Notes: a model not told the origin generated them from the sequence alone. Numbered from the stretch's first letter, positions 5,397 through 56,172 are shown. The stretch is DNA of 64,000 nucleotides from an uncultured Lentisphaeria bacterium (GCA_949282305.1 CASDPB010000055.1:27324-91323), one strand, 5' to 3'. Made by a program: numbers and translations.

Positions 5397-5467
5397 TCGT
5401 CAGCCGGACAGATTGCCGCACATTTCGATTCAGATCCGGCAGAAAGTGAATTGTCAAAGGGATTTTC

Positions 5468-18719: not shown

Positions 18720-18736
18720 TCTGAGAGGCGGTCATT

Positions 18737-26910: not shown

Positions 26911-29244
26911 ATGTTCAAGATTCTGATCCCGGAAACAACGGGAATTCACCGGACGGCGGCGGAAATTTTCGCCGGGTACTCACGGAAAATCACGGGACGG
27001 ACACCTGAGATCATTACGGCGGACGATGGGACAAGCGACCTTGTCGTACTGGGCAATGATGCGGAACATCCGTTCGTGCTGGAACTTCTTCTGGCGGGGA
27101 AGGCGGATTCGCTCGGGATCCGTTATGACAGCGATGACTATTCACTGACGAGCCTTCGTGAAAATGAGCGGAATCTTCTGCTGATCGCGGGGGGCAGGGG
27201 GCGTGCCCTGCTTTACGGCGTTTACGATTATCTGGAACGGTGCGGCTGTTCCTGGTTCTGGGATGAGGATTTTGTCCCGGAGCTGGACGAGCTGCCGCTG
27301 ACAGGTTTTTCCGTGAAGGAAAGTCCCCGTTTTGAATATCGGGGTCTGCGCTATTTCGCGCACCGCAGTCTCCATCGTTTCCAGGCGGAACATTGGAATC
27401 TGGAGGACTGGAAACGCGAAATTGACTGGATCGTGAAAAAACGTTTGAATTTCTTCATGCTCCGCATCGGCATGGACGACATTTTTCAGAAGGCGTTTCC
27501 GGAAACTGTGCCTTATCCCGACCCGGACCGGAGCACACCCACCGACATTCCCCGTTCCTTCAACGACCGCACGCAGTTCTGGTCTTTGGAAGAACGGGGA
27601 AAACTGCGTGCCGCGTTGCTGCAGTATGCCCGTGAGCGGGATCTCATGCACCCCGAAGATACCGGAACCATGAGCCACTGGTACAGCCGGACGCCGCAGG
27701 AGTTTCTGGACTCGGTCCAGCCGGAATTCATGCCGCAGGCGAACATGACGCAGTATGGAGAACCTTCCGGACTGGTCTGGGACATCCGTCAGCAGAAACA
27801 TCTCGACAACTATTTCAAGTTGACGGAAGCGCATATCGAACACTACGGTTCGCCGGAATTGTTTCATACCATCGGTCTTGCGGAACGCCTCTGCTACCGG
27901 GATCATGCGCGGAATCATCTGATGAAGCTCTATACTTACCGCAGGATCATCGGGAAACTGCGTTCCAGATATTCCTCCGCGCCTCTGATGCTCGCAACAT
28001 GGGATTTTATATGCCACTGGACGCCGGAGGAGGTGCGCAGTCTTGTCCGTGAACTGAATCCCCGGAACACTCTGATTCTTGATTATACTTCCGACAGCTG
28101 TGATGAACTGAATAATTTTCAGAACTGGAATCTGATCGGTAATTTTCCGTGGACGTTCGGCATTTTCCATGCGTTCGAGGCGAATACGGAGATGCGCGGC
28201 AATTACAATGTGATTGAACGGCGCCTTCCGGTCGCGGCGGAGGATCCGATGTGCAAGGGAATGATTTACTGGCCGGAAAGTTCCCACACAGACACCCTCA
28301 TGCTGGAATATTTTGCGGCGAACAGCTGGAATCCGGGGAATTTCCGCATTTCGGAGTTTCTGGAGGTCTTCTGCCGGAAGCGCTATCGGCAGGAGAGGGA
28401 ATACGCCGGGATGACTCCGGTATGGCGCGCCATGCTGCCGCTGATCCGGAGCAATTACTGGCGGCAGAATCAGCAGATGCCGATGAGAGGCTGTCTTTAC
28501 GTGGATTACTTTTTCCGGATTCTGGAACACACGATGACCGATCTGAATTTACGGCTGCTGGAAAATCATGAGGCAATCACAAAGGAGCTGAACGGGACGG
28601 TCCGGATTGCACCGGTGTGCATCCGGATGCTTGGCAGTCTGGATTATGCCTGCCTGAGCCGTCATGCGAAACGGGACTGGATGGATCTTGCGCGCTGTGC
28701 CGTTTCCCGGCTGTCCAACTTCGCGTGCGGGGTTCTTGCCTTGCGCATGGAGGCATGGCGGAATGGAGAGGAGGACGGCGCTTCGGTTTTGAAATATGCG
28801 GAACTGATCGGCGGGCTGCTCGAAAATGAAAAAATGCTTCTTGGCGCACATGAGGACTTTTCGCTTTATGCAAGCCTGCTCCGAATGCGGGAGAGTTACC
28901 GGACCAATCCCGGTTTCGAGTCGACTCTGAAGGGCAACGCGGAAAATATTTACTGCCGCAGTTTCATCTATGAACTGTTTGACGGTTGCTACATTCCGGA
29001 ATTCGGATGTTACCGCAGGTGGCTGGCATCCGGGATCTCCTCGGGAGACCGTTCCCCGTGGCGTTGTCCGGAGGCTCTTTTCCGCAGGGAAAAGAAACGG
29101 ATCGCCGACAGGTTTTACAATACTCCGCTTGCCTCGCTTGCGCCGGACCGGGAACATTGCATTGCCGCGCTGCCGAAAACGCTTGCTGAATTGGCGACAA
29201 TTGCGGACGAGCTGATCGCAGGTTCGGAAAAGATTCTTGCCTGA
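26911..29244 (+). CDS. GH89-like alpha-N-acetylglucosaminidase
   Basis: 777 aa. Segments LILDYTSD..., FPWTFGIFHAFEANTEMRGNY, GMIYWPESSHTDTLMLEYFAANSW and FLEVFCRKRY run colinear with NAGLU blocks ([58 protein letters not shown]). Confidence 0.65.
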   Translation: MFKILIPETTGIHRTAAEIFAGYSRKITGRTPEIITADDGTSDLVVLGNDAEHPFVLELLLAGKADSLGIRYDSDDYSLTSLRENERNLLLIAGGRGRALLYGVYDYLERCGCSWFWDEDFVPELDELPLTGFSVKESPRFEYRGLRYFAHRSLHRFQAEHWNLEDWKREIDWIVKKRLNFFMLRIGMDDIFQKAFPETVPYPDPDRSTPTDIPRSFNDRTQFWSLEERGKLRAALLQYARERDLMHPEDTGTMSHWYSRTPQEFLDSVQPEFMPQANMTQYGEPSGLVWDIRQQKHLDNYFKLTEAHIEHYGSPELFHTIGLAERLCYRDHARNHLMKLYTYRRIIGKLRSRYSSAPLMLATWDFICHWTPEEVRSLVRELNPRNTLILDYTSDSCDELNNFQNWNLIGNFPWTFGIFHAFEANTEMRGNYNVIERRLPVAAEDPMCKGMIYWPESSHTDTLMLEYFAANSWNPGNFRISEFLEVFCRKRYRQEREYAGMTPVWRAMLPLIRSNYWRQNQQMPMRGCLYVDYFFRILEHTMTDLNLRLLENHEAITKELNGTVRIAPVCIRMLGSLDYACLSRHAKRDWMDLARCAVSRLSNFACGVLALRMEAWRNGEEDGASVLKYAELIGGLLENEKMLLGAHEDFSLYASLLRMRESYRTNPGFESTLKGNAENIYCRSFIYELFDGCYIPEFGCYRRWLASGISSGDRSPWRCPEALFRREKKRIADRFYNTPLASLAPDREHCIAALPKTLAELATIADELIAGSEKILA

Positions 29245-29248
29245 AGAT

Positions 29249-29289
29249 AAAAAAGACACGAAGAGCTGGAAAACCGGTTCTTCGTGTCT
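29249..29289 (-). terminator. intrinsic terminator after the CBM9-like lipoprotein gene
   Basis: 11-bp stem agacacgaaga (29254-29264) pairs with tcttcgtgtct (29279-29289). The T-run appears when read on the minus strand. Confidence 0.6.
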
Positions 29290-29307
29290 CTGCAGCAGGG
29301 GAAGGAG

Positions 29308-30102
29308 TTATTTGAGAACAAGTTCTCCATAGTATTCGATCAGATGGTAGTTCCCCTGCGGAAGCTGTGGAATTGTGCTCAGCTGACAGCTTTTCTGCCC
29401 GAAGTTGTAGTTGTATCGTCCGAGAAGGATCGTCCATTTTCCGTTGTTGTCAAAGTCTACGCCGGTCAGATCCCTGAGCATTTTCAGGGGAATTGCAACT
29501 TCCACGGTCCAGCTTTTATCCTTGTCATTGTAGTTGTTGATTGTGCCCTGAACGACTGCCGCGGTCTGGAATGACGGGTCAAGCGTGCCCCAGTCGGCAC
29601 GGGCGTAACCGCGGGATTCAAAAAGGAACGTCGTCTTCCTGCCGTTCGGCGCGGCATAAAGCTCCCAGTATTTCGGTGATTTTTCGGATTTGATGAAGAT
29701 TTCAAAGAGGTCGCCCTGAAGATAGAGATGCTCCTGATCTTCCTTGCCGTATTGAACGACGTCGGAATCCTGCAGCACTGCGCCGATATACAGATAACTG
29801 CCGTCATAAACCAGCTTTGCCATGCCGGGCTCAAATGCGTCCGGGTTTTTCGCGACTTTCGGCATTACCACGCCGTAATCGCGCGCCGGAAGCTGAAATG
29901 CGTAAGCGGGAGTTTTCGCCCATGCCTCTTCATTCAGATTGCCGTCCAGCGTGATCTTGCCTGCGGCTTTCGACGCAGTGATCTTCTCACGCGGAGCATC
30001 GGCTCCGAAACGTTTTTCAAAATCGTCGTGCGCGCAGGAAGCGAGCAGAACGACCGCGAGTGCCGGAACGAGTCCGCGGAACAGCAGTGTAAATGCTTTC
30101 AT
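29308..30102 (-). CDS. CBM9-like (DOMON-type) carbohydrate-binding lipoprotein
   Basis: Lipobox signal MKAFTLLFRGLVPALAVVLLASC. ITLDGNLNEEAWAKTPAYAF and YLYIGAVLQD are typical of family 9 CBM-like proteins. The ATG is at 30102. Confidence 0.6.
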   Translation of the reverse strand: MKAFTLLFRGLVPALAVVLLASCAHDDFEKRFGADAPREKITASKAAGKITLDGNLNEEAWAKTPAYAFQLPARDYGVVMPKVAKNPDAFEPGMAKLVYDGSYLYIGAVLQDSDVVQYGKEDQEHLYLQGDLFEIFIKSEKSPKYWELYAAPNGRKTTFLFESRGYARADWGTLDPSFQTAAVVQGTINNYNDKDKSWTVEVAIPLKMLRDLTGVDFDNNGKWTILLGRYNYNFGQKSCQLSTIPQLPQGNYHLIEYYGELVLK

Positions 30103-30343
30103 GGATATGTCTCCCTTTTTGATGTGTGAAAAAACTAATATACACAGGGAAATGCTTTTGTCAAACCTTGGACGGTACTCGGATGGGGAAAAAGTCTCTT
30201 CCGGCACCGTCTGCCGGTTGTTCGGGAGGAACTGCATGTGCGGGAGACTTCCGCACGGCGAAATTCTTTCCCCGGCACCTTCGGGCTTTTCGTATGAAAT
30301 GTTACTATCGTACAAAAAAAACGGCAAAAAGATATTTTATCGT

Positions 30344-30372
30344 TTGACATTTCCGGAAAGTGCCTGTAATAA
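30344..30372 (+). promoter_or_regulatory. candidate promoter of the secretin/ABC operon
   Basis: TTGACA (30344-30349), a 17-nt spacer, then TAATAA (30367-30372), about 55 nt upstream of the secretin ATG. Confidence 0.35.
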
Positions 30373-30428
30373 TAAGGTTCATCGACAAAACAACAATACG
30401 CCTTTAAGATGGGAAAATAGGATTTAAG

Positions 30429-32066
30429 ATGTTCATGCTGTCTGCTAGAACTGCCGGACAATTTGCGGCTGTACTGTGTACATTTGCATTTGTTTCCGCC
30501 GGACAAGATAACAAAACACAGTCACAGCCGCCGCAGCCGGTGTCTCCTCCGGCTGAGGCTGTCGCCGCCGAAGCGCCCCCTGATTCCGCGGGCGGAAGCG
30601 ATTTGGAACAGGCGGCTTCCGGCTTTACCGGCTCGACCGGGAAACTGACCGTCATCAAGCGGCTGGAAGCCTTGTTCAAAGGTTCGGCAAAGCCGATTGT
30701 CCAGACAAAAACGTTTGAACCGGTGAAGCCTTATATCGCAATGCATGAGATCCCGGCGCGGGATGAGCTGACTCCCGCCCGCATGATTATCGTCTACCGT
30801 CTGCGTTTCGTCAACGCCAAGAAGGCACAGGACGCGATCGAAGGGATTGTGGGAGAGAGCGGGACGGTCGAAATCTCGGAGAATCAGAACACTGTAATCA
30901 TCAATACGGAAAAGGAGAAGGCCGATGCCATCCGGGGCGCCCTGCTTTCCCTGGATCAGCCGCAGCCGCAGATTCTGGTGGAGGCACAGATCATTGAAGT
31001 GCAGCTGGAGCAGGGGGAGGTGCGCGATGTGCAGGCGCAGTATTCGCAGAAGGACGGCAAGACCGGCACGATTGACACCTATGGCTTCAAGCTGGACAGT
31101 CCCGGGCAGAAGAACAACATCGACCAGAATTCAGGATTCAATTTTTTCCCGGTTTCCACATCGGATTCCGACGGCGGATTCAAGAAACTGCAGATTGCCT
31201 TGAATTGGCTGAGCACCAGTACGGACGCAAAGATCCTCGCCTCTCCGAACATCATTGCCGATCTCGGTTCCGAAGCGACCATGACGACCGGTGAAGAGAT
31301 TCCGTACGCCGAGGCGAATATGACGAATGTGGGCGTTGCGCAGAACATCAAGTTCAAGAAGACTGGCGTGAATCTGCGGATCAAGCCGGTTATCATTAAC
31401 AAGGATACGGTAAGGCTTGAGATCAAACCGGAAATCATTCTGGCGGTGCGCTACCAGACCTTTTCCCAGAAGGACAGCGAAGGAAACGTGACAAGCGAGA
31501 GCAGCATCCCCGTCGTTTCCGTCCGCAATATCGAAACGACCCTGACTGCCGCTGACGGCGAAATCATCATGCTCGGCGGACTGTATTCCAGCGAGGCCAC
31601 GGAGCGCCTGCGGAAAACCCCCTTCTTCAGTGATTTGCCTGTCGTCGGCGATCTCTTTACCGCGAAGGATGCAACCATCTATGACAAACAGCTTCTGTTT
31701 TTCATGAAGATTCATATTCTGCCTTCGCCTTATTCCGTGGTGCTTGATCCGGAAGCGAATGCCGCCATGATTCAGGATATCGGGCGCTCCGTGCGTGATT
31801 CCGGCACGCTGTTCCGGGAGAAGAGCAAGCCGGAAATCAAGGATCAGGAAACGCTTTTCAGGATTGACTCCCTCTGGAACCCGAAACCGGTGATCCTGAA
31901 AAAGGTCGGAAACGAGGCGGGAGAAGAGAAACGGGTTCCGCCGCGGCAGTTTCTGAATCCGAAGCCGGCCGCTCCCGGAAAGGATTCCGGCGCATCGAAG
32001 AAGCCTGCTCCGGAAAATGCTGTTTCAGACAGGAGTGCCGAAACAGAGAAAAACGGGCAGAAGTAA
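30429..32066 (+). CDS. short secretin (GspD/PilQ superfamily outer-membrane channel)
   Basis: Signal peptide, a Pro-rich linker and one secretin_N-like domain (IIVYRLRFVNAKKAQDAIEGIV...NTVIINTEKEKADAIRGALLSLD). The C-terminal secretin domain reads ILASPNIIADLGSEATMTTGEEIPY...VSVRNIETTLTAADGEIIMLGGLY...PFFSDLPVVGDLF. Confidence 0.85.
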   Translation: MFMLSARTAGQFAAVLCTFAFVSAGQDNKTQSQPPQPVSPPAEAVAAEAPPDSAGGSDLEQAASGFTGSTGKLTVIKRLEALFKGSAKPIVQTKTFEPVKPYIAMHEIPARDELTPARMIIVYRLRFVNAKKAQDAIEGIVGESGTVEISENQNTVIINTEKEKADAIRGALLSLDQPQPQILVEAQIIEVQLEQGEVRDVQAQYSQKDGKTGTIDTYGFKLDSPGQKNNIDQNSGFNFFPVSTSDSDGGFKKLQIALNWLSTSTDAKILASPNIIADLGSEATMTTGEEIPYAEANMTNVGVAQNIKFKKTGVNLRIKPVIINKDTVRLEIKPEIILAVRYQTFSQKDSEGNVTSESSIPVVSVRNIETTLTAADGEIIMLGGLYSSEATERLRKTPFFSDLPVVGDLFTAKDATIYDKQLLFFMKIHILPSPYSVVLDPEANAAMIQDIGRSVRDSGTLFREKSKPEIKDQETLFRIDSLWNPKPVILKKVGNEAGEEKRVPPRQFLNPKPAAPGKDSGASKKPAPENAVSDRSAETEKNGQK

Positions 32067-32069
32067 AAG

Positions 32070-33578
32070 ATGAATATCAGGAAACACTGGAAAAAGATTC
32101 TGTTGGCAGTTGCCGGAGTTCTTGTCGCGGCGGGAGCAGTGCTTTATTTTGCCGCTCCGGAGCTGTTCCGCGGCGGAAGGAGCGGGAAGAGCGAATCCAA
32201 GGCGCCTGACAGGATTTACCCGGTGAAACGGGGAGACATGGTGATCGGGATCATGCTCAAGGGCAGCGTGAATGCGAAAACCAAGCACAAACTCGCTTTG
32301 GAAGCTCCCTGGGGCACGAAACTGATCCGGGTCGTCGATGAAAACAAGCGCGTGAAAAAAGGGGACATCGTCGCCGAATTCGAGGCATCGGATCTGATCC
32401 TGAAAATTGACGACTATAGACTGACGATTGAACAGACGAAGAAAGACCTTGCGATTGCTCTGGAAGAACGAGCCGTGCTGATCAGCACCAACAAGGCGGA
32501 CATCCGTGCCGCGCGGGACAAGGTGACGGACTGCGAGGACGCTTACAGCAAGTATGTGCGCCTGGAGGGACCGCGCGACCGTGACAGCGCGGAACTGAAA
32601 GTTTCCGATGCGGAAACCGAACTTTCCGAGGCGGAAGACGCCGTGACAACGGCGAAGAGCGACTATGAATCGACTGTTTTTGCCGACGAAGCGGAGGAAA
32701 AGAAGGCGAAACAGGCGATTGTCGATGCCGAGAAGAAACGTGAAAGCGCCGAAACGAAACTGAATTCCGCCATGCTGGAACGGAAATTGTTCAAACGCTA
32801 TACCTATCCGAACAAACTTAAAACGCTGCGGAACAATCTGGCGCAGGCGAAACTGGATTACGAGAAAACAAAGGTCCGGACGCAGTCTCTGCTGACGCAG
32901 AAGAACAATCAGATTTACCGTTATGAAATCACGATCCGCAACAACGAGCGCCAGTTGAAACGCCACACCTCGTGGCTGCCGATGCTGACACTGATCGCGC
33001 CGGTCGATGGAATCGTGACTTATGGAGATCCGGACCGTCTGTGGGGCAATCCCGAAGTCAAAGTCGGCATGGACGGACGCAGGAAGCAGGTCATCATCAC
33101 GATTCCCGACATGAGCAAGATGATTGTCGATGTGAATCTGCCGGAGCAGTACCGCTCGAAAGTCATGGTCGGGGACCCCGTCATCATTACGCCGGAGTCG
33201 ATCCAGACCATCAAGATCAAGGGCAGAATCGCCTCCATTGCGTCGCTTCCGGTCAATATCATTCCGTGGGACAAGAGCACGCCGAAAATTTACCGGACGG
33301 TGGTGGATTTCTCCGACGACAACCCGAAGATTGTAAGCGGTATGAGTGTTCAGGTGGAAGTGGTGTCCAAGATACTGAAAGACGTGATTTCAATTCCGAT
33401 TGAGGCGGTATTTGAGGAAGGCGGGCAGCTTCTGGTTTACCGCAAGACGCTTTCGGGTCCGGAAAAGGTCAATGTCAGGATCGGGGCGACCAGCGACAGC
33501 GCCGTGGAAGTGACCGACGGGCTTGAGGAGGGCGATGAAGTCTACCTTTACCGTCCGTTCCAGGCGACAAAGAAGTGA
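32070..33578 (+). CDS. HlyD/MacA-type periplasmic adaptor (membrane fusion protein)
   Basis: N-terminal TM anchor, lipoyl-like halves (VKKGDIVAEFE ... LIAPVDGIVTY), a long coiled-coil hairpin and beta-barrel/MP domains. The start lies 3 nt after the secretin stop. Confidence 0.85.
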   Translation: MNIRKHWKKILLAVAGVLVAAGAVLYFAAPELFRGGRSGKSESKAPDRIYPVKRGDMVIGIMLKGSVNAKTKHKLALEAPWGTKLIRVVDENKRVKKGDIVAEFEASDLILKIDDYRLTIEQTKKDLAIALEERAVLISTNKADIRAARDKVTDCEDAYSKYVRLEGPRDRDSAELKVSDAETELSEAEDAVTTAKSDYESTVFADEAEEKKAKQAIVDAEKKRESAETKLNSAMLERKLFKRYTYPNKLKTLRNNLAQAKLDYEKTKVRTQSLLTQKNNQIYRYEITIRNNERQLKRHTSWLPMLTLIAPVDGIVTYGDPDRLWGNPEVKVGMDGRRKQVIITIPDMSKMIVDVNLPEQYRSKVMVGDPVIITPESIQTIKIKGRIASIASLPVNIIPWDKSTPKIYRTVVDFSDDNPKIVSGMSVQVEVVSKILKDVISIPIEAVFEEGGQLLVYRKTLSGPEKVNVRIGATSDSAVEVTDGLEEGDEVYLYRPFQATKK

Positions 33579-33602
33579 GTTCCGGCAAAAGGCGGTGCTG
33601 TT

Positions 33603-34337
33603 ATGGAACAGACGAAGGAAAAACGTATGGAGGCGCTTCATCTCGGCGATATCCGCAAGACCTATCATGCCGGTTCGTTCGATGTGCCGGTTCTCAAGGG
33701 CGTGAATTTCGACGTTATGCGCGGGGAATTCATCGGCATCATGGGTTCTTCCGGCTCGGGAAAATCCACGCTGCTGAACATTCTCGGCACGCTGGACAAA
33801 CCCACCTCCGGGGAATACCGGCTTGACGGAATCAATGTGGAAACCCTTTCCGACAGAGAACTTACGACGATCCGGAATATCAAGATCGGGTTTGTCTTCC
33901 AGGCATTCAACCTGTTTCCGCATCTGACCGTTCAGGAGAATATTGAAGTGCCGATGCTTTATGCCGGCGTGCCAAAGCATATCCGGCGCAGGATCGCCGC
34001 GGAAATGGCGGAAAAAGTCAAACTTGCGCACCGTCTGGATCACCGCCCCACCCAGCTTTCCGGCGGAGAGTGCCAGCGCGTTGCCGTTGCCCGCTCACTG
34101 GTGAACAATCCGACTTTCATTCTGGCGGATGAACCGACCGGAAATCTGGACGAGAAAACCGGGATTGAGATCATGAAGCTGTTCCATGAGCTTCATGCCG
34201 CGGGAACGACTCTGGTGATGGTGACGCACAATCCGCAGTATGAACCGGAATATGACCGGGTGATTTATCTCCGCAACGGGCGGAAATGGCGCGTGGTCGA
34301 TAATATCAACCACAAGACCGAGGAGTTTGAAACATGA
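33603..34337 (+). CDS. ABC transporter ATP-binding protein (MacB/LolD-type)
   Basis: Walker [10 protein letters not shown], signature LSGGECQR and Walker [12 protein letters not shown]. Confidence 0.9.
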
Positions 34338-35599
34338 AGCTCGGCGATCAGCTATGGCTTTCCTTTCACAACCTGATGCTTCATAAGATCCGGTCGGTGC
34401 TGACTTCTCTGGGCATTATTTTCGGTGTCGGCAGCGTGATTGCGATGCTTTCCATTTCCGAGGGAGCGAAACGGGAAGCGCTGGCGCAGATTGAATCCAT
34501 GGGGGTGGACAAGATCATTGTTTCGACAAGAAAGCCGCCGCCGACCGGCAAGGACGTGTCCGAGAATACGACGAACAGCAACCTGGAGACGTTCGGGCTG
34601 ACGCAGGCGGATCATGACCATATTCTGCACATGGACAATGTGAAGTCCATCGCCACGGCGCGGAACTCCCGGAAAAGCATCCTGCGGGGAACGACTCAGC
34701 TTGACCTGTCACTGTTCGGAGTGACGCTGGATTTTCTGGAGGAGAGCCGTTCCGTGATCACGCAGGGACGCTGGCTGTCGCCTCTGGACAAGGATCGCAA
34801 TGTCTGTGTGCTCGGAATTGATGCGAAGCGTGCGCTCTTTTCCCTTGCAGAGCGGGACATCATCGGGAAGGTGATCTCCATCGACGACGATGCGTTCCGG
34901 ATCGTCGGCGTGCTGGAAAACCAGAAGGGAACCACGATTGAAGGCGTCGGCAGTCCGAACAGCGCCATTTTCATCAGCAAGGAGGCTTCGGAGTCGATTT
35001 ACGGCAGAACTTCCGTGACACGGGTCAGCGGCAGGACTTCCATCGAGGTCGTTGATTATGACTGCTTCATTGTGAAGGTGCTGGATGTGAGTTATATTGA
35101 TTTCACGTCCAAGAGAATTGCCGCGTATCTTGCCAAGATGCACAATGATGTGAAGGACTGGGAAATGGTGGTGCCGCTGGATCTCCTGAAGCAGCGGGAG
35201 CAGACGCAGAACATCTTTACGGTCGTCATGAGTTCGATAGCGGGAATTTCCCTGCTGGTCGGCGGGATCGGCATTATGAACATCATGCTGGCGAACGTTT
35301 ACGAGCGGCGGAAAGAGATCGGCACACGGCGCGCTCTCGGTGCACAGAAGGGGGATATTATCCGCCAGTTCCTGTTTGAGACGATCTTCCTGACTTCGAT
35401 CGGCGGTTCGATCGGTGTCGGGCTGGGGTTGTGCATTGCGAAAATTGTGACGAAGTATGCGAACTGGCCCGTGGCGTTTTCGATCTGGTTCATCATTCTC
35501 GCCCTTGTGATTTCCGCCGTGATCGGGATCATTTTCGGCACGTATCCCGCCTGGAAAGCCGCACAGCAGAATCCCATCGACGTGCTCCGCGCGGAGTAG
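34334..35599 (+). CDS. ABC transporter permease, MacB/FtsX family
   Basis: ATGA overlap with the ATPase gene. One TM helix, a large periplasmic domain, then three TM helices. The C-terminal FtsX-like block reads GIGIMNIMLANVYERRKEIGTRRALGAQ...YPAWKAA. Confidence 0.9.
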   Translation: MKLGDQLWLSFHNLMLHKIRSVLTSLGIIFGVGSVIAMLSISEGAKREALAQIESMGVDKIIVSTRKPPPTGKDVSENTTNSNLETFGLTQADHDHILHMDNVKSIATARNSRKSILRGTTQLDLSLFGVTLDFLEESRSVITQGRWLSPLDKDRNVCVLGIDAKRALFSLAERDIIGKVISIDDDAFRIVGVLENQKGTTIEGVGSPNSAIFISKEASESIYGRTSVTRVSGRTSIEVVDYDCFIVKVLDVSYIDFTSKRIAAYLAKMHNDVKDWEMVVPLDLLKQREQTQNIFTVVMSSIAGISLLVGGIGIMNIMLANVYERRKEIGTRRALGAQKGDIIRQFLFETIFLTSIGGSIGVGLGLCIAKIVTKYANWPVAFSIWFIILALVISAVIGIIFGTYPAWKAAQQNPIDVLRAE

Positions 35600-35824
35600 A
35601 ACTGGAACGGCGTATCTGCACAGAGCGATCTCCTGCCTCATGGAAAGTCCATTCAAAAAAAGGCTGTCCGGCGGGGACGCAAAGAGAATCCCTCCATATT
35701 GACCTGCTCCGTCCCCGCGGAAAGAATCCGGCGGAGGAATGGCTGACGGGATGCCGTTGCCGGTTTGCCTTTTGAAAGACAAGAGTGTATATTATAAAGA
35801 TTTGTGAATAAAAGGAAAAAGATT

Positions 35825-38008
35825 ATGTCTGTACAATTTATTGAAAACAAAAATCTATTTATTTTATCCTGTGCAAAACTTTCCTATGCTTTTTACGTTG
35901 ACGCCAACAGGCGGCTGGTTCATCTGCATTTCGGGGGAAAGGTTTTCGGGGAGGAAGGACTGATCCAGCAGGAAATCCGCAAAAGCCATTCCTCCTTTTC
36001 GCCGTGGGCGGCGGGAGAAAAGCCGGAGGATTCCGTTGATGCCCTTCAGCTGGAGTTTTCCGGATTCAATACGGGGGATTTCCGTGTGAATTCGGCTGCG
36101 GTGCAAACCTGCAACGGTTCCCGGATTACGGACGCGCTCTATGTGTCGCACCGGATTTACAAGGGGAAGAAACGCCTTGCAGGGCTGCCTTCCGCTTTTG
36201 CCGGAGATCATGACAGCGTGGAGACGCTTGAGATTACGATGCGCGACACCGCATGCGAGCTTGAATTCATACTCTCTTACTCCGTATTTGAAGAGTGCAG
36301 CACGATTGTTCGTTCCGTAAAAGCCGTCAACGGAACTGCGTCTCCCCTTGTGCTGGAACGTCTGATGAGCGCACAGCTCGACTTGCCGCATACGGGTTTC
36401 GACTTTGTCCAGCTGAGCGGTTCGTGGACGCGCGAACGTCATCCGGAGCGGACTTCTCTGCGTTCTGGAATTCAGGCGATCCGCAGTGTCCGCGGTGCCT
36501 CCGGACACCAGAACAGCCCGGCGGTAGCCCTGATGGCGCATGATGCCACCGAATATTCCGGCGACGTCTACGGTGCGGTTCTGGCTTACAGCGGCAATTT
36601 CCTGATCGAGGTGGAGTGCGAACAGTATGGAACGGCACGGCTTTGCGCGGGGATCAATCCTGAGAATTTCTCATGGAGGCTCGCGCCGGGGGAATCGTTT
36701 GAAACGCCGGAAGTGTATCTGACTTATTCCGGGGAAGGGCTCGGCGGCATGTCCCGCAATCTGCATGATTTCATGCGCCGGCATCTGATCCGCGACGGCT
36801 GGGCATACAGGAAGCGTCCGCTTCTTGTGAACAGCTGGGAAGCTGCCTACTTTGATTTCGACTCCGCGAAGCTGCTCGGAATTGCCGAAAGCGCCGCCAG
36901 GCTCGGCATTGAGATGCTGGTTCTTGACGATGGCTGGTTCGGTGTCCGCAACGATGACACGACATCGCTTGGCGACTGGTTTGTAAATACGGAAAAGATC
37001 GGTGATCTCGGTGAGCTGGTGCGGAAAATCAATGCGCTCGGAATGAAGTTCGGGCTCTGGTTCGAGCCGGAGATGATTTCCGAGAAGAGCGAGCTGTACC
37101 GGAAGCATCCGGAGTGGGTTCTGCACGAACCGGGACGCAGACGTTCCATCGGGCGGGAGCAGATGCTGCTGGATATGTCGCGCCCCGAAGTGGTGCAGTA
37201 TCTTTTTGAAACGATTTCCAATATCCTGCATTCCGCGAACATCGAATATTTGAAATGGGATATGAACCGGAATCTGACCGAAGTCTATTCGGATGTGCTT
37301 CCCCCGGAGCGGCAGGGAGAGGTTTCGCACCGGTATATGCTTGGTGTCTACCGCCTGCATGAAATGCTCCTCAAGGAGTTCCCCGGACTCCTGATTGAAG
37401 GATGTTCCGGCGGCGGAGGGCGTTTCGACGCCGGAATGCTGGGGTATGTCCCGCAGATCTGGTGCAGTGACGATACGGATGCGATGGAACGTATTCTGAT
37501 TCAGCTCGGAACCTCTTATTTTTATCCCGTCAGCGCGATCGGCGCCCATGTTTCCGTCTGCCCGAACCATATTACCGGACGGATTACGCCGTTTGCCACA
37601 AGGGGAGATATTGCGCTTTCCGGCACTTTCGGTTATGAACTTGACCTGACGAAACTTTCCGAGGAGGAACAGGCGCTGGTAAGGAAGCAGGTCGCGGATT
37701 ATCATAAATACCATCATATTATTGCCGGAGGAGATCTTTACCGTCTGTCGGACTCTTTCAAGGTCAATGCTTTTGACGCATGGATGTATGTTTCCAGGGA
37801 TCGCAGGGAAGCTCTGATTACGGCTGTCTGCCGTTTCTGCCGGCCGAACGACGGTGTCCGCTTTGTGCGTCCCCGCGGGCTGGATCCGGAGATGATTTAT
37901 GAAGTGGACGGGATGCAGATTTCCGGTGCAACCCTGATGTCCGTCGGGATTCAGGTGAGACTGAATTCTGACGGCGCCAGCCGCATTTATTATCTGAAGG
38001 CTTTGTAA
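35825..38008 (+). CDS. alpha-galactosidase, GH36
   Basis: LVLDDGWFGVRNDDTTSLGDW, EYLKWDMNR, EGCSGGGGRFD and WCSDDTDA are canonical GH36 (AgaA/MelA-type) blocks. Confidence 0.85.
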   Translation: MSVQFIENKNLFILSCAKLSYAFYVDANRRLVHLHFGGKVFGEEGLIQQEIRKSHSSFSPWAAGEKPEDSVDALQLEFSGFNTGDFRVNSAAVQTCNGSRITDALYVSHRIYKGKKRLAGLPSAFAGDHDSVETLEITMRDTACELEFILSYSVFEECSTIVRSVKAVNGTASPLVLERLMSAQLDLPHTGFDFVQLSGSWTRERHPERTSLRSGIQAIRSVRGASGHQNSPAVALMAHDATEYSGDVYGAVLAYSGNFLIEVECEQYGTARLCAGINPENFSWRLAPGESFETPEVYLTYSGEGLGGMSRNLHDFMRRHLIRDGWAYRKRPLLVNSWEAAYFDFDSAKLLGIAESAARLGIEMLVLDDGWFGVRNDDTTSLGDWFVNTEKIGDLGELVRKINALGMKFGLWFEPEMISEKSELYRKHPEWVLHEPGRRRSIGREQMLLDMSRPEVVQYLFETISNILHSANIEYLKWDMNRNLTEVYSDVLPPERQGEVSHRYMLGVYRLHEMLLKEFPGLLIEGCSGGGGRFDAGMLGYVPQIWCSDDTDAMERILIQLGTSYFYPVSAIGAHVSVCPNHITGRITPFATRGDIALSGTFGYELDLTKLSEEEQALVRKQVADYHKYHHIIAGGDLYRLSDSFKVNAFDAWMYVSRDRREALITAVCRFCRPNDGVRFVRPRGLDPEMIYEVDGMQISGATLMSVGIQVRLNSDGASRIYYLKAL

Positions 38009-39065: not shown

Positions 39066-39218
39066 TACCGGATTGAGAAATCTTCTGATACTTTTCTGAA
39101 ACCGTTCTGACACCTTAAAGTGTCAGAAAATATTGCTGTTTTTCCATTATTTTCCGTTTTTCCTATTGCGTTCGATTTCCTTTTATTTATAATATATAAC
39201 AAAGGGAAAGTGGATTTT

Positions 39219-40268
39219 ATGGAAATTACAGTGGCGCAGAAAAAGAAAAAACTGCAAATGATTGCAAGGCGGAATGGGGTTTCCCTGTCTACGGTTTACC
39301 GGATTCAGCGTGGAGACGGCAGCCGGAGAAATCCGAAATTCCAGGCTGTAAAGCAGGAACTTCGCCTTTTGGATGAATGCGGGGAGGGAATTCCCGGCGC
39401 CCCGGTCATGATGGTCACAGAGAATTCCTTGTCTTCCCATGCGCTGGAATTTTACGAGCAGATGAAACGGCTCTGCATGGAGCGGAAGATTGAACTGGTG
39501 CTGACTCTGGAAAAGTCCGTAAAGGAGGATTTGAGGAGACGCTGTTTTGCCGGGATCATCACCCTGACGCCGATTTCCGTTCCGGATGAGATACCTGTTG
39601 TTTACCTGAACCGCCGTTCCCCGTCCGGCAGGGAGTCTTCCGTATGCGTGGATGGAATGATGAACTGGGCGAGAATGCTGATTCATCTGAAGGAGCACGG
39701 GGCAAGGAGAGTCGGCATTTTTAACGGTGTTTCCGAAAGAAACCTTTCCTATTACCTGACTGCCGGTATTCTGTCCGGAGAAGTGCTTCTGAGCCTTGCG
39801 GGACTGCCTTCCGATCCTGAGCTGATCTGCCCTGTCACTCTTTCCCCTGAGACTCATGCGGAGGGGTTGAAGCAGGCGGCGGATTATTTCTGTTCGCTGA
39901 AAAAACTTCCCGACACACTGCTGGTCAATTCCGACTTTTACATTCCGAGGATGAGCCGCCGTTTCCGGGAACATGGTGTCCGTGTCCCGGAAGACCTTCT
40001 GATTGCCGGTGTCCACAGCTATTTGCAGACGGTTCCATCCGCCTCTCATCCGACTGCTTATACTTTAATGGAAGAGTATCAGGAAGTGGAGTCCAGCCCC
40101 TGTATCTGCGGGGTCCATTGCTTTCAGGAAATGGCGGGAGCCGCTCTTGATCTTTTACTGGAGAAAATCAATCAGGCGGATTCCATTCCGAGACAAATCT
40201 GTTTCAGCCTGAAGATACAGGATTACCGTTTTGAGAGAGAAGAAATAAAATATGAAACACACAGATGA
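39219..40268 (+). CDS. LacI/GalR-like transcriptional regulator
   Basis: N-terminal HTH IARRNGVSLSTVYRIQRG plus a periplasmic-binding-protein-like core (VGIFNG..., PDTLLVNSDFYIPRMSRRFREHGVRVPEDLLIAGV, compare LacI). Confidence 0.6.
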   Translation: MEITVAQKKKKLQMIARRNGVSLSTVYRIQRGDGSRRNPKFQAVKQELRLLDECGEGIPGAPVMMVTENSLSSHALEFYEQMKRLCMERKIELVLTLEKSVKEDLRRRCFAGIITLTPISVPDEIPVVYLNRRSPSGRESSVCVDGMMNWARMLIHLKEHGARRVGIFNGVSERNLSYYLTAGILSGEVLLSLAGLPSDPELICPVTLSPETHAEGLKQAADYFCSLKKLPDTLLVNSDFYIPRMSRRFREHGVRVPEDLLIAGVHSYLQTVPSASHPTAYTLMEEYQEVESSPCICGVHCFQEMAGAALDLLLEKINQADSIPRQICFSLKIQDYRFEREEIKYETHR

Positions 40269-40283
40269 GAAGGAGGAGGAAAA

Positions 40284-41048
40284 ATGGGCAGAGGCAGACA
40301 AACTTTTACACTGATTGAGCTTCTTGTTGTAATAGCGATCATTGCGATTCTGGCAGGGATGCTTCTGCCGGCGTTGAACAACGCCCGCGAAAAGGCGCGC
40401 ATGATTTCATGCACCGGCAATATGAAACAACTGGGAATTGCCATGGGAATGTATACTTCGCAGTATGAAGACTATTTTCCCAATACGGGTGTCTATACGA
40501 TCAACGGAACAGTATGCTATCCGATGAGCGTTTTAGCACATTCAACCGGTCTCGGGGGAAAGGTCTTCATCTGCCCGTCTTTCCGCGTTAACAAAAGTTC
40601 AGATGTTACAGTTCAGAAAATACAATCGTTTTCACCGCAATATCTTGGCGAGAAAATGACGAATGGCGCAGGAGAAATGACCTATGTGCATTATGGGATC
40701 AACCGTATTACCTATAACACCGGTCTGGGGATTGCAGGAAAAGTCACCCGGGTGAAGATGCCTGCCCGGTATCTGAACATGGGGGAGTCGGCATTCAATA
40801 CGAACCGCGACAGGGGATTTGCGATTCTTGCCGAGAATTATTATGAGACGGGTGCATGGGGGATGGTCGACATCCGGCACAACACTTCTTCCAACGTTCT
40901 TTTTGCCGACGGACACGTGAACGGGCTCAATACGAATATGAAGATTTCCCGTTATGTCTACAACTCTTCGCTGAATCCTTACCGAAGTGCGGCTTTTACG
41001 GGAAACAGCACCGTCGGGCTCTGGAATGCCGCATTGACGAAATTTTAA
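40284..41048 (+). CDS. prepilin-type N-terminal cleavage/methylation protein with H-X9-DG (DUF1559) domain
   Basis: [28 protein letters not shown] class III signal and a C-terminal [13 protein letters not shown] motif. Confidence 0.85.
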
Positions 41049-41066
41049 AGAAACAGAGGTGATGAT

Positions 41067-44000
41067 ATGAAAAAGGAATGGATTCTCGGGGCGCTTGTCG
41101 TTGCCGGAGGGACGCTTCATGCCGCGCAGACGCTTTCCCTGACCTTTGACAGGGAGAAGATGATGGAGCTTGAGGGGAAGGAGTATCGGATACCGGCAGG
41201 CAGAGACGGGTTTCTTGAGGTAGGGAAGACTGGTTTGTCGCTTCCCGCGCAATCTCTCGTCGGTGAGCGGGGAACGATTCTGCTTCAGTTCAAACTGCAG
41301 GCTCCTACTGAGGAAAAGATGAGTCCCCGTTATATTCTGACTCTCCGCTGCAAATCGCGGATGAGCGCCGGATTGTATATTATCGAAGGCCCGAAGTATT
41401 TCCGTTTTTCCTTCGGCGATCGCACCGGTCAGATTTACCATGTGATGAAGGAGGAATTCCAGTATGGACAGCTCTATCATGCGGGAATCGCGTGGGATGG
41501 TTCCAGAGTCCGTTTTTATCTGGACGGCAAACTTGTAGGTGATTATAAGCAGCCGGTCGGGATGGAGAAGATCTCCATGCTGAATCTGGGACCTTATCGC
41601 GACGGGTGGATGGCGCCGAAACCCTGGGGAAACGATGTGTTCATAAAGAGTGTCAGGACATTCGATACGATGCTGACTTCGCAGGATGTTGCAAAAGAAA
41701 GCGGAGTTGTTCTGAAAACCGCAGGAGAACTTGCGCCGCCGCTTCTGACTGTGCCTCTGAATCCGGAAAAGGCACCGGTCATAAACGGAGAGCTTACGGA
41801 AACCTTCTGGCGGTATGGTGCTTCGCTTCCCGTGCTGATAAATCTCGGAAAACCGCTTGAAAGTTTTCAGGCTCCTCAGGGGAAGTTCCTGCTTTCTTAT
41901 GATGCCAAGAATCTGTACGTCGGTTTTTCCTATCATATTCCAGCCGGAAATCCAGTCAATGCGGGCAGTCTGCGCACGAAGGACTCGGAACCGGAAGTGT
42001 GGGGAACAGAATCCTTTGAGCTGTATCTGGCCGTCAACGGAAATCTGTTCCGTTTCGCGGGGAATGCGGCGGGCGGCTATACGGAATGGAAAAACAACGG
42101 TGTGGAGTGGAACGGAAAATGGGATTACCGTTCCCAGGTCAGGATGCGGATCGACAACAGTTCCGTATGGCAGGGAGAGGCGGCGATTCCGTGGAAGACA
42201 CTTGGGTTGGACGGGATACCGGAAAAGCCGCTGTCTTTCAACTTCTGCCGGACCTGGTGTCTGCCGGACTATTCCGGAGCGACTTCGCTGATCGAAGGGA
42301 AAAGCTATTCCCGCAAGGAAGATTTTATCACTCTGGCATTCGACAGGAAGGCTCCGGCAGTCCAGGTCATGGAGCAGAATAACCCATGCAAAGGAGTGTT
42401 CCGGCAGAAAGTCCGTATCATTTCCCCGGTAGATCAGGCGGTTGCTTATGAGGCTGCACTGTTGAACCGGGATGGTTCAGCCGAGCCGTTTACCATCGTT
42501 GAGAAGAAGGCGGAGCTGAAAGGCGGAGTTCCGCGGGAGATCGAGCTTGAGGCGAGAATCACTGCTCCCGCCTATGATACAATCCGTTATACATTGAAGC
42601 GGAATGACGGAGCTGTCGCACGCATCCTGGTTCCTTTCAAGCTGAACGAGAGCTATCTGGACGCCAAACCGCGTTTTCTGTCCGGTAAAATTGACTTTGA
42701 TATTCAGTCGGGACTTCTTGCCGCAAAGTTCGGAGAAGACTGTTCGCCTGTTCTTGTGTTGAAGGATGTGTCGGGCAGGGAAATATTTCGGCAGAAGGTA
42801 AGCGGGGATGTGATGACGGTTCCTTTCAGCGGCAGGAATCCGCCGGGAAATTATACCGCGGCAATCCTCGGACGTGACGGCAGTGTCCTGTCCTCGCTTG
42901 CAATTCATTTTCCGGGAATTGGAAAATGGGCGGAAATGAAGTTCGATAAAACGGTAATCCTGCCGCCTTTCACCCCGCTCAAGGTAAATGGAACGGACTG
43001 CAGCATGTGGGGACGTACTTATTCTTATCGGAATTCGCTTCTTCCATGCCGGATTCAGTCTCAGGGCGTTGAGCTGCTGAATGCTCCCAGTGAAATCGTG
43101 GCGAACGGCAGGACACTTGGAAATGGAAAAACGGAACCGGTAAGTGCGGAACCGCACCGCGCGGAATTCAAAGGACGCGCAGGGAATCCGGATTGCAGCG
43201 TCACGGCGGATTCCTGGGTGGAATATGACGGCGTGGCTTACAGCAGGTTTACGGTCCGGACGAAAAAAGATCTGAAGGATTTGAAACTGCGTTTCACCCT
43301 GCCGGCGGAACTTGTCAAATATCTGCATACCAGCGAGGGCGGCTCCTGGGGGACGAAACTGACAGTGCCGGTGAAGGGCGGCAGAACAGTGTTCCGCTTT
43401 TATCCGATGGTATGGATCGGAATGGAAGACAAGGGCATCTGTTTCTTCACTGAAACACGAAACGGCTGGACCGTTCCCGCCGGAGAAACTTACAGTATTA
43501 TGAAAAAAGACGGCAAGGCGATTCTGGAAGTGGCGATGCGCGAGAAACTCAAAGCCGGTGAAAAATTTGAATTCGAGTTCGGTTTTATCGCAACACCGGT
43601 GAAACCGCTGCCGGAGAATTATCCGCTGAATATCTTCGGGGATTCTCATTGTCCCCTGATGCGCCGTCCCGGACGCACACCGGTTAATGCCCTGTTCGTC
43701 GGCTCGGCGCCGTATCCAAACGAGATTTCCAGTTATTTCTGCGATCTGCCGAATGAAAAGGAGTCTCCCGCGGTTGCACCGGTCACGCAGCTGCTGAAAC
43801 GCCGCGATGCCGCCGGAAACAAAATGGTGGTTTATATGGATGCGCGTTATCTTTCGGATGAGTATCCGGAAATGGCGGCGTTCAAGGACGAGTGGAAATT
43901 CTCGCCGGAACGTACGTTGAACTATACCCGCGACGGCAGGAAGTACATGCTGTATGACTGTTGTCCCGTCACTGGCGCAAGCGCGTTTTTCCACATGCAC

Positions 44001-44945
44001 CAGAAACGTTTTCTGGAGCGCTTCAAGGCGGATGGCATTTACTATGATTTCGGGACATTCGGCATTTGCAGCAATCCGCTCCATGGATGCCGGGAGCGTT
44101 ATCCGATTCTTGCCATGCGCGAATTCTACCGCCGTACGGCACTGGTTCAGTACCAGAGCGGAATCAGGGAGCCGCTGATCGTCCTTCACAATACGGACAG
44201 TGTGCAGATTCCGGCGATGACCTTTGCCACACATTTGTTCAACGGAGAGCATATCCGGCAGTCCAGCAGCACCATCATGCACAACGGCAAAGACATTCAG
44301 GATACCTATTCCATAGAAATGTTTGCCAGTGAGCTTGGCTCCATGCCGTTCGGACTGACCAACGCCGTTTACCAGTCGAATGACGTCCTGCTTCCGCAGT
44401 TCGGCGGAGGCAAGGAGGATCCGGAACTTTACAAGTTCCGCATTACCCAGGCGTTCCTTGCCGGAACCCTGCCGCATAATACGATCGTCGCCCAGTCGCG
44501 CTGTCATTACGGCATACTGGATAAAATCGTGCGCATTTATGATGAATTCCGCGTGCCGGAAGCCGGGTTCATCGGTTACTGGAATTCCCCCGCCGCAGTA
44601 AAAGGCGCGGAAAATATCTACGTGAGTGTCTATAAACATCCCGAGGAAAAGAAGGCGCTTGCCGTAATATCGCATATCGGCAAGGCGCATGAGAACCAGG
44701 AATTTGAAGTCGTATTCAATTCTGGACTGCTGGGCTTCACTCCGCAGAAGGCGGTTGATAAAATGACCGCTCCTGATCCGGAGTATGACGAACTTTACAA
44801 AATACAGGCGGAAAACCGGATTCCCCGGGACCGGGCTCCCTTAAAACTCGGGGATTTCGGTTCCAAAGTGGACGGCATCAGGGACGGAAAACTGAAAATG
44901 AGCCTGAAATATCATACATTCGCATTGGTCGAGCTGAGCGAGTAA
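41067..44945 (+). CDS. large secreted LamG/CBM9-like multidomain protein, putative glycan-active
   Basis: 1292 aa. Signal peptide MKKEWILGALVVAGGTLHA, a LamG-like block (YHAGIAWDGSRVRFYLDGKLVGDY) and a CBM9-like block (INGELTETFWRYGASLPVL...KNLYVGFSYH). The C-terminal half is unassigned. Confidence 0.6.
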   Translation: MKKEWILGALVVAGGTLHAAQTLSLTFDREKMMELEGKEYRIPAGRDGFLEVGKTGLSLPAQSLVGERGTILLQFKLQAPTEEKMSPRYILTLRCKSRMSAGLYIIEGPKYFRFSFGDRTGQIYHVMKEEFQYGQLYHAGIAWDGSRVRFYLDGKLVGDYKQPVGMEKISMLNLGPYRDGWMAPKPWGNDVFIKSVRTFDTMLTSQDVAKESGVVLKTAGELAPPLLTVPLNPEKAPVINGELTETFWRYGASLPVLINLGKPLESFQAPQGKFLLSYDAKNLYVGFSYHIPAGNPVNAGSLRTKDSEPEVWGTESFELYLAVNGNLFRFAGNAAGGYTEWKNNGVEWNGKWDYRSQVRMRIDNSSVWQGEAAIPWKTLGLDGIPEKPLSFNFCRTWCLPDYSGATSLIEGKSYSRKEDFITLAFDRKAPAVQVMEQNNPCKGVFRQKVRIISPVDQAVAYEAALLNRDGSAEPFTIVEKKAELKGGVPREIELEARITAPAYDTIRYTLKRNDGAVARILVPFKLNESYLDAKPRFLSGKIDFDIQSGLLAAKFGEDCSPVLVLKDVSGREIFRQKVSGDVMTVPFSGRNPPGNYTAAILGRDGSVLSSLAIHFPGIGKWAEMKFDKTVILPPFTPLKVNGTDCSMWGRTYSYRNSLLPCRIQSQGVELLNAPSEIVANGRTLGNGKTEPVSAEPHRAEFKGRAGNPDCSVTADSWVEYDGVAYSRFTVRTKKDLKDLKLRFTLPAELVKYLHTSEGGSWGTKLTVPVKGGRTVFRFYPMVWIGMEDKGICFFTETRNGWTVPAGETYSIMKKDGKAILEVAMREKLKAGEKFEFEFGFIATPVKPLPENYPLNIFGDSHCPLMRRPGRTPVNALFVGSAPYPNEISSYFCDLPNEKESPAVAPVTQLLKRRDAAGNKMVVYMDARYLSDEYPEMAAFKDEWKFSPERTLNYTRDGRKYMLYDCCPVTGASAFFHMHQKRFLERFKADGIYYDFGTFGICSNPLHGCRERYPILAMREFYRRTALVQYQSGIREPLIVLHNTDSVQIPAMTFATHLFNGEHIRQSSSTIMHNGKDIQDTYSIEMFASELGSMPFGLTNAVYQSNDVLLPQFGGGKEDPELYKFRITQAFLAGTLPHNTIVAQSRCHYGILDKIVRIYDEFRVPEAGFIGYWNSPAAVKGAENIYVSVYKHPEEKKALAVISHIGKAHENQEFEVVFNSGLLGFTPQKAVDKMTAPDPEYDELYKIQAENRIPRDRAPLKLGDFGSKVDGIRDGKLKMSLKYHTFALVELSE

Positions 44946-45914: not shown

Positions 45915-45930
45915 GTTCCTCTGTCAAACT

Positions 45931-47109: not shown

Positions 47110-47128
47110 GAATGGTCTCCCGTATGGA

Positions 47129-56003: not shown

Positions 56004-56172
56004 CATGCCGGCGCGCGGGGAATCCGTTTCGGCGGGAGCATGTTCAGGCTGAGTGCCGAGCCTGTGCGCCGGGAGAGGAATCACTGCCGGCATGTTCGCC
56101 CGGTCCGGGGACCGGCAGTGACTCCGCAAGGCGTTTCCGGGGGTGTCCTGACATGACAAATCCCGCTGAAAT

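Follow-up and report, generated by a model that had tools for sequence, protein, structure and literature searches.

A secretin as the probable outer-membrane duct of a MacAB-type ABC pump in Lentisphaeria and related bacteria

We analyzed a 64,000-nucleotide stretch of DNA (hereafter the window) from an uncultured Lentisphaeria bacterium (GCA_949282305.1 CASDPB010000055.1:27324-91323) and found a cassette of four genes, for a secretin, a periplasmic adaptor, an ATPase and a permease, that probably form one envelope-spanning exporter: a tripartite ATP-binding cassette (ABC) pump of the MacAB type in which, judging from sequence comparisons and structure models, a minimal secretin and not a TolC-family protein is the predicted outer-membrane duct. 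The evidence consists of the proteins and their predicted folds, the near-obligatory co-inheritance of the genes, homologous operons carrying a TolC-family gene in the slot of the secretin, and a partner-specific remodeling of the distal hairpin of the adaptor. An earlier reading made from the sequence alone had suggested that the secretin may replace TolC as the exit duct; this suggestion is supported by the conserved adjacency, by genes of the OEP (TolC) family in the same slot of relatives and by the changed adaptor tip.

The four open reading frames (ORFs) lie on the same strand (Table 1). Their coordinates and junction sequences agree with the close packing claimed in the sequence-only reading, with 3 nucleotides (nt) between secretin and adaptor, 24 nt between adaptor and ATPase, and a 4-nt ATGA overlap of ATPase and permease. 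The first product belongs to the secretin superfamily (PF00263), having both the pore domain (118.8 bits against a Pfam cut-off of 27.5) and an N3-type ring domain, within which residues 122-181 match Secretin_N at 2e-08 (34.7 bits, cut-off 28.2). Its elements are, in order, a signal peptide, a low-complexity linker, a short conserved helix (residues 72-84), the N3-like domain (approximately 100-180), the pore domain (261-431), a conserved C-terminal helix (441-457) and a disordered Lys/Pro tail; Pfam, the family alignment and the structure model thus confirmed the 545-residue secretin with a signal peptide, one secretin_N-like domain, a pore and a Lys/Pro-rich tail that had first been read from the sequence. 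The AlphaFold2 (AF2) monomer model was moderate overall, with a predicted local distance difference test score (pLDDT) of 64, and the N3-like domain was predicted at pLDDT of about 90 with the layout beta-alpha-beta-beta-alpha, while the tail from about residue 485 to 545 was without conservation and of low model confidence.

The family profile of the secretin matched 22 solved secretins, the top ones being GspD chains of type II secretion systems (e.g. 5wln at 1.2e-42), and Foldseek gave probability 1.0 for matches to GspD, PilQ and InvG. The scores remained far under the family cut-offs of NCBIfam for both GspD (TIGR02517, 151.5 bits against 351.35) and PilQ (TIGR02515, 137 bits against 284.35). 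For the domains N0, N1 and N2, no PF21305 or STN match was found in the window secretin or in 107 family members, although these domains do occur in the nonfamily matches P0108-P0115. Public gene calls begin the secretin at the second ATG (30435, 543 residues), while the sequence favors the longer form starting at 30429, as AGGA sits 7 nt before it. We considered that the secretin might be a lipoprotein and rejected the idea, a lipobox-like signal being present in just 13 of 91 family sequences.

The other three genes have, by sequence and predicted structure, the makings of a MacAB-type pump, namely a MacB-type permease, an ATPase with intact motifs and a MacA-like adaptor; Pfam, NCBIfam and AF2 agree here with the first reading, which had named a MacA-like adaptor with a long hairpin, a MacB/LolD-type ATPase and a separate FtsX-type permease. 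The adaptor model (mean pLDDT 84) consists of an N-terminal transmembrane (TM) helix (residues 3-32), a lipoyl domain, an alpha-hairpin (107-301), a beta-barrel and a membrane-proximal domain, and its top Foldseek matches are MacA chains of MacAB-TolC (9qgy_G and 5nik_D). A rise of 1.5 Å per residue gives the hairpin a length of about 140 Å. The Walker A, signature, Walker B and H-loop motifs of the ATPase are intact in the translation (VTHN is seen), and its 1e-71 NCBIfam match is to the N-terminal half of MacB. The permease scores 94.8 bits to MacB_PCD and 85.8 bits to FtsX and aligns to MacB residues 257-647 at 9.3e-54 but to LolC/E at only 4.7e-10. It has no ABC_membrane domain in the Pfam scan, which sets it apart from type I secretion. 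The usual third component of MacAB-type pumps, a TolC/OEP protein, is not encoded at the locus, where the outer-membrane gene of the operon is the secretin.

Table 1. Predicted features of the four-gene cassette (positions counted from the first letter of the window)
Feature	Position	Strand	Evidence and remarks
Sigma-70-like promoter candidate, TTGACA, 18 nt, TG-n-AATAAT	30344-30373	+	56 nt 5' of secretin start; 11/12 consensus matches
Minimal secretin, 545 residues	30429-32066	+	Pfam, NCBIfam, family alignment, AF2 model, PDB profile and fold matches to GspD and PilQ
Secretin N3-like ring-building domain, residues 100-180	30726-30968	+	Secretin_N at 122-181; AF2 pLDDT ~90
Secretin pore domain, residues 261-431	31209-31721	+	PF00263, 2.4e-34
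Periplasmic adaptor (membrane fusion protein), 502 residues	32070-33578	+	Pfam HlyD_D23 and HlyD_3; NCBIfam; AF2
Adaptor alpha-hairpin, two 95-residue helices (107-201, 207-301)	32388-32972	+	AF2 model; length and conservation statistics
ABC ATPase subunit, MacB/LolD type, 244 residues	33603-34337	+	ABC_tran 3.9e-35; MacB 1e-71; LolD 1.4e-70
MacB-type (type VII ABC) permease with large periplasmic domain, 421 residues	34334-35599	+	MacB_PCD 1.1e-26; FtsX 3.1e-24; start overlaps ATPase stop (ATGA)

To study the conservation of the cassette, we scanned one genome per species and obtained 80 loci from Lentisphaerota, Kiritimatiellota and Sedimentisphaerales. The set covers Lentisphaeria with Victivallales, Kiritimatiellota and Phycisphaerae. 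Victivallis vadensis DSM 14823 is among its members, as is the zth2 strain of Lentisphaerota, with the cassette (L076) in its complete genome; a cassette is also found in that of Sedimentisphaera salicampi, likewise complete. Where at least 800 nt of downstream DNA was available, the adaptor directly followed the secretin in 71 of 72 loci, and where at least 4.3 kb was available, secretin, adaptor, ATPase and permease stood in this order in 56 of 57. The distance from the secretin stop to the adaptor start was -4 to +24 nt across nearly all loci, the ORF starts in related loci being naive calls. Secretin homologues with identity as low as 35% were each found in the same four-gene cassette with entirely different neighbors, and the flanks were unrelated between loci.

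The identities of the four proteins to those of the window co-vary across loci (secretin versus adaptor, Spearman rho 0.87), from which we conclude that the cassette is inherited as a unit. Each of the 80 species representatives returned gave one cassette locus, and as far as these genomes tell the cassette is chromosomal and vertically inherited. Across about 85 related loci we found no fifth conserved gene such as a cargo, pilotin or regulator, the most common flank family, DUF1559/N-methyl, being present at 8 loci. Nor did any type II secretion or pilus platform, ATPase or (pseudo)pilin gene recur beside the cassette in these loci, and no acyltransferase, glycosyltransferase or other cargo-related gene was conserved near it.

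A second clade of secretin-linked adaptors, probably of Kiritimatiellota judging by the source names of secretin homologues, came from a metagenome scan with a 10-sequence adaptor alignment that gave 31 loci. The secretin was directly 5' of the adaptor in all 17 scanned loci with upstream DNA and in L093, making 18 of 18, and the gene directly upstream of P0248, a member of the second adaptor cluster, was a secretin. Named homologues of the second-clade secretins are from Kiritimatiellota and Lentisphaerae. These secretins have the same minimal architecture with a different conserved N-terminal helix, DYTRLLEQFLK, and the YR.R first strand of the N3-like domain is conserved across both clades. 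Six loci with 2-5 kb of downstream sequence (e.g. L106, L112 and L116) contained the secretin-adaptor pair and no ABC genes in that stretch; in L116 the following genes were, by Pfam, unrelated and on the opposite strand. As the pair persists without neighboring ABC genes, it is the most tightly linked unit of the cassette. The synteny check proposed with the sequence-only reading therefore speaks for conservation and against an adjacency unique to this genome, in the species-level loci for the adaptor and for the full cassette as in the second clade.

The metagenomic subclade in which secretin and adaptor overlap with no ABC genes next to them (L100-L103, L105-L107, L112, L116 and L121; e.g. 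L116:2701-6398) is probably from Kiritimatiellota. At least two of its loci have a 277-residue ORF on the same strand and in the same position just 5' of the secretin (L116:2701-3534 and L106:2687-3520), and the L116 copy, the one scanned with Pfam, consists of PTS_EIIA_2 and a zinc ribbon.

The boundary of the secretin family was sharp. Family members scored E 6e-41 or better, and the next match, P0108, scored 2.7e-21. N0 and STN domains are present in this nearest outsider, and its gene comes after those for T2SSF, pseudopilins, PilM and T2SSM, in an operon resembling those of type II secretion or type IV pili. From the score gap and the context of P0108, we conclude that orthologous secretins do not reside in gsp or pil operons and that the nearest outsiders do; the earlier reading had named such a residence as a reason to doubt it.

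The closest view of the outer-membrane component came from the relatives of the adaptor. A search of 1.84 billion representative proteins with the adaptor profile returned 1547 relatives at E 1e-30 or better, forming several clusters, and most of the top 150 were full-length (480-640 residues). In all three sampled operons of related adaptors outside the secretin-linked clade, a TolC-family gene occupied the slot of the secretin: upstream of P0300 and P0350, the directly adjoining gene is of the OEP/TolC family and overlaps the adaptor start, and an ATPase and a MacB-type permease follow; upstream of P0332, an OEP gene also overlaps the adaptor start, with the contig stopping 187 nt past the adaptor. 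The distant loci L123, L124 and L126 carry an OEP gene as well and not a secretin. The alternation of OEP and secretin in the same slot of otherwise equal operons is a case of nonorthologous displacement, one family of operons having exchanged its outer-membrane component.

We found the distal hairpin to be the only part of the adaptor that differs between the secretin-linked and TolC-linked operon types. Between fixed anchors, the hairpin segment measured 205-209 residues in 67 secretin-type and 199-201 residues in 49 OEP-type representatives, the types being set by hairpin length and the gene context checked for part of each group. The 8-residue difference is confined to the distal part (82 versus 74 residues; residues 163-244 of the window adaptor), and the basal parts are of equal length. 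OEP-type tips share a conserved motif, L.e.GFvT..evEe, with a majority frequency of 0.45 where the remainder of the hairpin reaches 0.43; in secretin-type adaptors the motif is lost, and the tip is the least conserved part of the hairpin (0.29 versus 0.39 for the rest). The tip is where the adaptor contacts TolC, through the RLS motif, according to a figure legend in PMC8277102. The strict pattern R...L......S occurred in none of the 67 family adaptors; as it was equally missing from the OEP-type representatives, with no match among about 60 listed sequences drawn from both types, we discarded it as a discriminator.

In a midpoint-rooted neighbor-joining tree, the long-hairpin adaptors formed one clade with 68 of 125 representatives, consistent with a single switch from OEP to secretin. 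P0332 was informative in this respect: it groups with the window adaptor at 40% identity and yet has an OEP-type tip, and the prediction made from the tip was borne out by the upstream gene, which matched a Pfam-verified OEP at E 2.4e-47 and gave no secretin signal. Among the more distant OEP-linked relatives, we also observed two adaptor genes per operon in L123 and L124 (1326-7455; order OEP, adaptor, ATPase, adaptor, permease) and tandem double-adaptor fusions in P0283 and P0326 (1047 and 971 residues).

In the mechanism that we propose, the ATPase dimer would drive the 4-TM permease by mechanotransmission, as in MacB, and the permease would pick up its cargo in the periplasm or at the inner membrane's outer leaflet and not from the cytoplasm. 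The adaptor oligomer would form a helical tube about 140 Å long. The distal end of this tube may dock on the secretin multimer, at its periplasmic N3 ring or vestibule; the exit of the cargo would be the secretin gate. Other secretins are coupled to type II secretion or pilus platforms by N0; this one has no such domain, which fits a different inner-membrane partner. A secretin consisting of N3 and the pore domain would reach into the periplasm roughly as far as the 100 Å barrel of TolC, and with the reach so similar, an addition of only about 4 residues per helix would have been enough for the swap. More speculatively, the cassette could represent a distinct and unnamed protein secretion system of the Planctomycetes-Verrucomicrobia-Chlamydiae (PVC) group, ABC-powered and pseudopilus-free, in which folded periplasmic proteins such as the numerous glycoside hydrolases of these bacteria leave through the secretin by way of a MacB-type transporter and a long adaptor tube, with the adaptor ring possibly of higher order and matched to a 12-15-fold secretin. 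We consider this unlikely; if true, such a system would be a further independent recruitment of a secretin, after type IV filament machines, type III secretion and filamentous phage.

Several points weigh against a secretin-ducted pump. An adaptor hexamer has no obvious match in symmetry or size to a secretin of 12-15 subunits. Two features that we had considered as signs of the partner were rejected, since both occur in OEP-linked relatives and are uninformative on that question: the long hairpin is no compensation for a missing TolC tunnel, the OEP-linked relatives having 199 residues versus 207, and the proline-containing belts EGPRDRD and FKRYTYPNK, considered as contacts to the secretin, have conserved equivalents in OEP-linked adaptors. 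In L060, the one exception among the 72 loci, the secretin (4476-6621) is followed by an M28 peptidase gene and no adaptor, and in L092 a family secretin (251-3529) is followed by the gene for Mfd, the transcription-repair coupling factor, again with no adaptor; these could be cases of genuine uncoupling, rearrangement or assembly artefact. The TolC-linked contexts come from three look-ups and three distant loci, and TolC-family partners were surveyed in the window and about 1.2 Mb of flanks, a part of the genomes, the remainder of which may encode such a partner or other secretins. Within that survey, jackhmmer found no OEP/TolC-family ORF of at least 250 residues in the window and the flanks of L001-L090, where the expectation was just one to three genes; the queries were E. 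coli TolC and two Pfam-verified OEPs. Finally, a different pilus secretin family, of the Amuc_1098 type, is reported for Lentisphaera araneosa (PMC4960237).

The last point cuts both ways, as a separate pilus secretin in the phylum also speaks against an alternative in which the cassette secretin is the pore of another machine. In that alternative, which we regard as improbable, the machine would be type II secretion- or pilus-like and use DUF1559/N-methyl pseudopilin-like proteins, and the adaptor and ABC proteins would be an accessory module that assembles, gates or energizes it, comparable with FtsEX acting on periplasmic partners, and not a conduit for cargo. DUF1559 genes are strongly expanded in these phyla. 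A DUF1559/N-methyl gene does lie 4.7 kb downstream of the cassette, and the family is the most common in the flanks, yet given this expansion, chance may account for its presence beside the cassette at 8 of the roughly 85 loci. The alternative gains some support from the subclade with a secretin-adaptor pair and no adjoining ABC genes, from the secretin census having covered loci and not whole genomes, and from MacB-type transporters that can be mechanotransducers on periplasmic partners, as stated in PMC12646458. Against it stand the missing N0 domain, through which secretins couple to the inner-membrane platforms of type II secretion or pili, the lack of recurring genes for a platform, an ATPase or pilin assembly beside the cassette, and the OEP genes in the same slot of homologous operons, which point to the role of a duct.

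A further alternative accepts the complex as proposed but sees it as a machine for envelope biogenesis that brings lipoproteins, glycolipids or polysaccharide to the cell surface, comparable with Lol, Aat and MacAB-glycolipid export. It is fully compatible with a secretin-ducted pump, the cargo being the sole difference, and we consider it quite improbable. The single cassette locus in each of the 80 representatives and the mostly housekeeping contexts suggest a core function, and a few loci have glycosyltransferase and Wzy genes downstream. Systems of the MacB family are known to handle lipoproteins (LolCDE) and acylated dispersin (Aat). Glycolipids are a further substrate of such systems according to a review legend (PMC8277102). 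However, the permease is far nearer to MacB than to LolC/E, no acyltransferase, glycosyltransferase or cargo-related gene is conserved near the cassette, and few of the family secretins have a lipobox-like signal. That secretin and pump are neighbors without any shared mechanism, the secretin being an orphan and the MacAB pump an ordinary one that uses a TolC encoded elsewhere, is very improbable indeed: outer-membrane factor genes are often unlinked from those of tripartite pumps (PMC8277102) and the TolC search was confined to the window and flanks, but secretin and adaptor adjoin with overlapping or nearly overlapping stop and start codons and unrelated flanks in 71 of 72 species-level and 18 of 18 second-clade loci from three phyla, the pair persists where 2-5 kb of downstream DNA contains no ABC genes, the conserved tip motif is lost exactly in the secretin-linked adaptor clade, and relatives carry an OEP gene in the same slot.

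The surroundings of the cassette were examined with a consensus scan for promoters and a Pfam scan. The sequence-only reading had placed a promoter candidate TTGACA-N17-TAATAA in front of the operon: the site was recovered as the top plus-strand site within 29200-36200, whereas the register differed, the scan reading TTGACA-18-AATAAT, and the candidate is a consensus match only. The Pfam scan covered 45 candidate ORFs of at least 200 residues across the 64 kb, leaving aside a few, mostly overlapping ORFs. None of the 45 belonged to the GspE/F, PilB/C, PilMNOP, Tad or OEP/TolC families, in line with what had first been read of the neighborhood. About a dozen had no Pfam match, and part of these are probably noncoding alternatives to annotated genes on the opposite strand. 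The remaining surroundings are glycoside hydrolases, regulators, housekeeping genes and DUF1559/N-methyl genes of the PVC-group type.

Four stretches of the window deserve mention in their own right. At 39120-44945, a Peripla_BP_3 regulator-like gene, the DUF1559/N-methyl prepilin-like gene (40284-41048) and the gene of a 1292-residue GH123_N/LamG protein follow one another. A second exporter lies on the minus strand at 45021-48910 and consists of an ABC_membrane plus ABC_tran protein (47129-48910), an HlyD-type adaptor (45931-47109) and a radical SAM enzyme (45021-45914); no outer-membrane factor gene adjoins it. It looks like an export cluster for a peptide or a ribosomally synthesized and posttranslationally modified peptide, and its ABC_membrane exporter is unrelated to the secretin cassette. 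Genes for a V/A-type ATPase (A and B subunits, D subunit and an I-subunit-like protein) occupy 15689-21192. In 55000-64000, the GC content is between 0.45 and 0.58 and ORFs of at least 200 residues have no Pfam matches; the region may be foreign or mobile DNA.

To our knowledge, the machines in which secretins have been described are the type II and type III secretion systems, type IV and Tad pili, and filamentous phage. For tripartite pumps, a 2025 overview of type VII ABC systems gives only TolC-like partners (PMC12646458). A conserved operon family with a secretin in the slot of TolC breaks both generalizations. We found no prior description of a secretin-ducted MacAB-type pump in the full-text literature searched, a body that most subscription journals lie outside, and the impression of the first reading that the architecture is undescribed holds to that extent. 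Apart from the outer-membrane component and about 30 residues at the tip of the adaptor, the sister operons are largely alike, and the recognition of the outer-membrane partner by the adaptor is therefore directly testable; the operons are a natural experiment on it. The carriers are common polysaccharide degraders of guts and sediments whose export routes have barely been studied: for strain zth2, the text of an eLife paper mentions laminarin-induced "secretion system-related" genes without naming them. Automated surveys of these phyla would arrive at wrong counts of pumps and of type II secretion systems.

Compared with known systems, the cassette does not belong to type I secretion (HlyB/HlyD/TolC), which has a 6-TM ABC_membrane protein and cytoplasmic cargo, unlike the FtsX/MacB-type permease found here. 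The filamentous phage secretin pIV (with pI/pXI) offers a parallel: it is minimal, and the inner-membrane ATPase machine that it serves is no type IV filament system. Its structure 7ofh matches the secretin family profile at 8.1e-31; the partner here differs, being an ABC transporter with a membrane fusion protein, and the cassette is chromosomal, with one locus per species representative. The Pfam matches of called flanking genes in six contexts included no phage genes or pI/Zot-like ATPase, and across the related loci no flank family recurs. The Aat dispersin exporter of enteroaggregative E. coli (AatPABCD) reportedly consists of a MacB-like ABC transporter, an adaptor and an outer-membrane channel and exports a periplasmic protein; with this composition, it is a precedent for protein export by a pump of the MacB-like class, but it has a TolC-like outer-membrane component, an acyltransferase and a known cargo gene, none of which is present at the cassette.

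With GspD and PilQ, the cassette secretin shares the N3-like domain and the C-terminal pore domain, GspD chains being the closest solved matches. It differs from them in lacking N0, N1 and N2, in scoring far below the family cut-offs, in not being encoded with GspC-M, PilMNOP or secretion ATPases, and in having a conserved short N-terminal helix and a C-terminal helix of its own. Also among the closest systems is MacAB-TolC of E. coli (PDB 5NIK). The two are alike in an ATPase and a predicted 4-TM permease with the MacB periplasmic core domain, in a four-domain MacA-like adaptor with an N-terminal TM helix whose top fold matches are MacA, and in a gene order of outer-membrane gene, adaptor and ABC genes, as in the sampled TolC-linked relatives. 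They differ in that the ATPase and permease are separate proteins here, while the E. coli MacB model NF007826 spans both; in the hairpin helices, which at 95 residues are about twice as long as those of MacA; in the distal tip, which is without the conserved motif and 8 residues longer than in OEP-linked relatives; and in the outer-membrane gene, which is a secretin and not of the OEP/TolC family. Pumps of this type and secretins are each well known, and what is likely to be new is their combination, a MacAB-type tripartite pump with a secretin as its duct.

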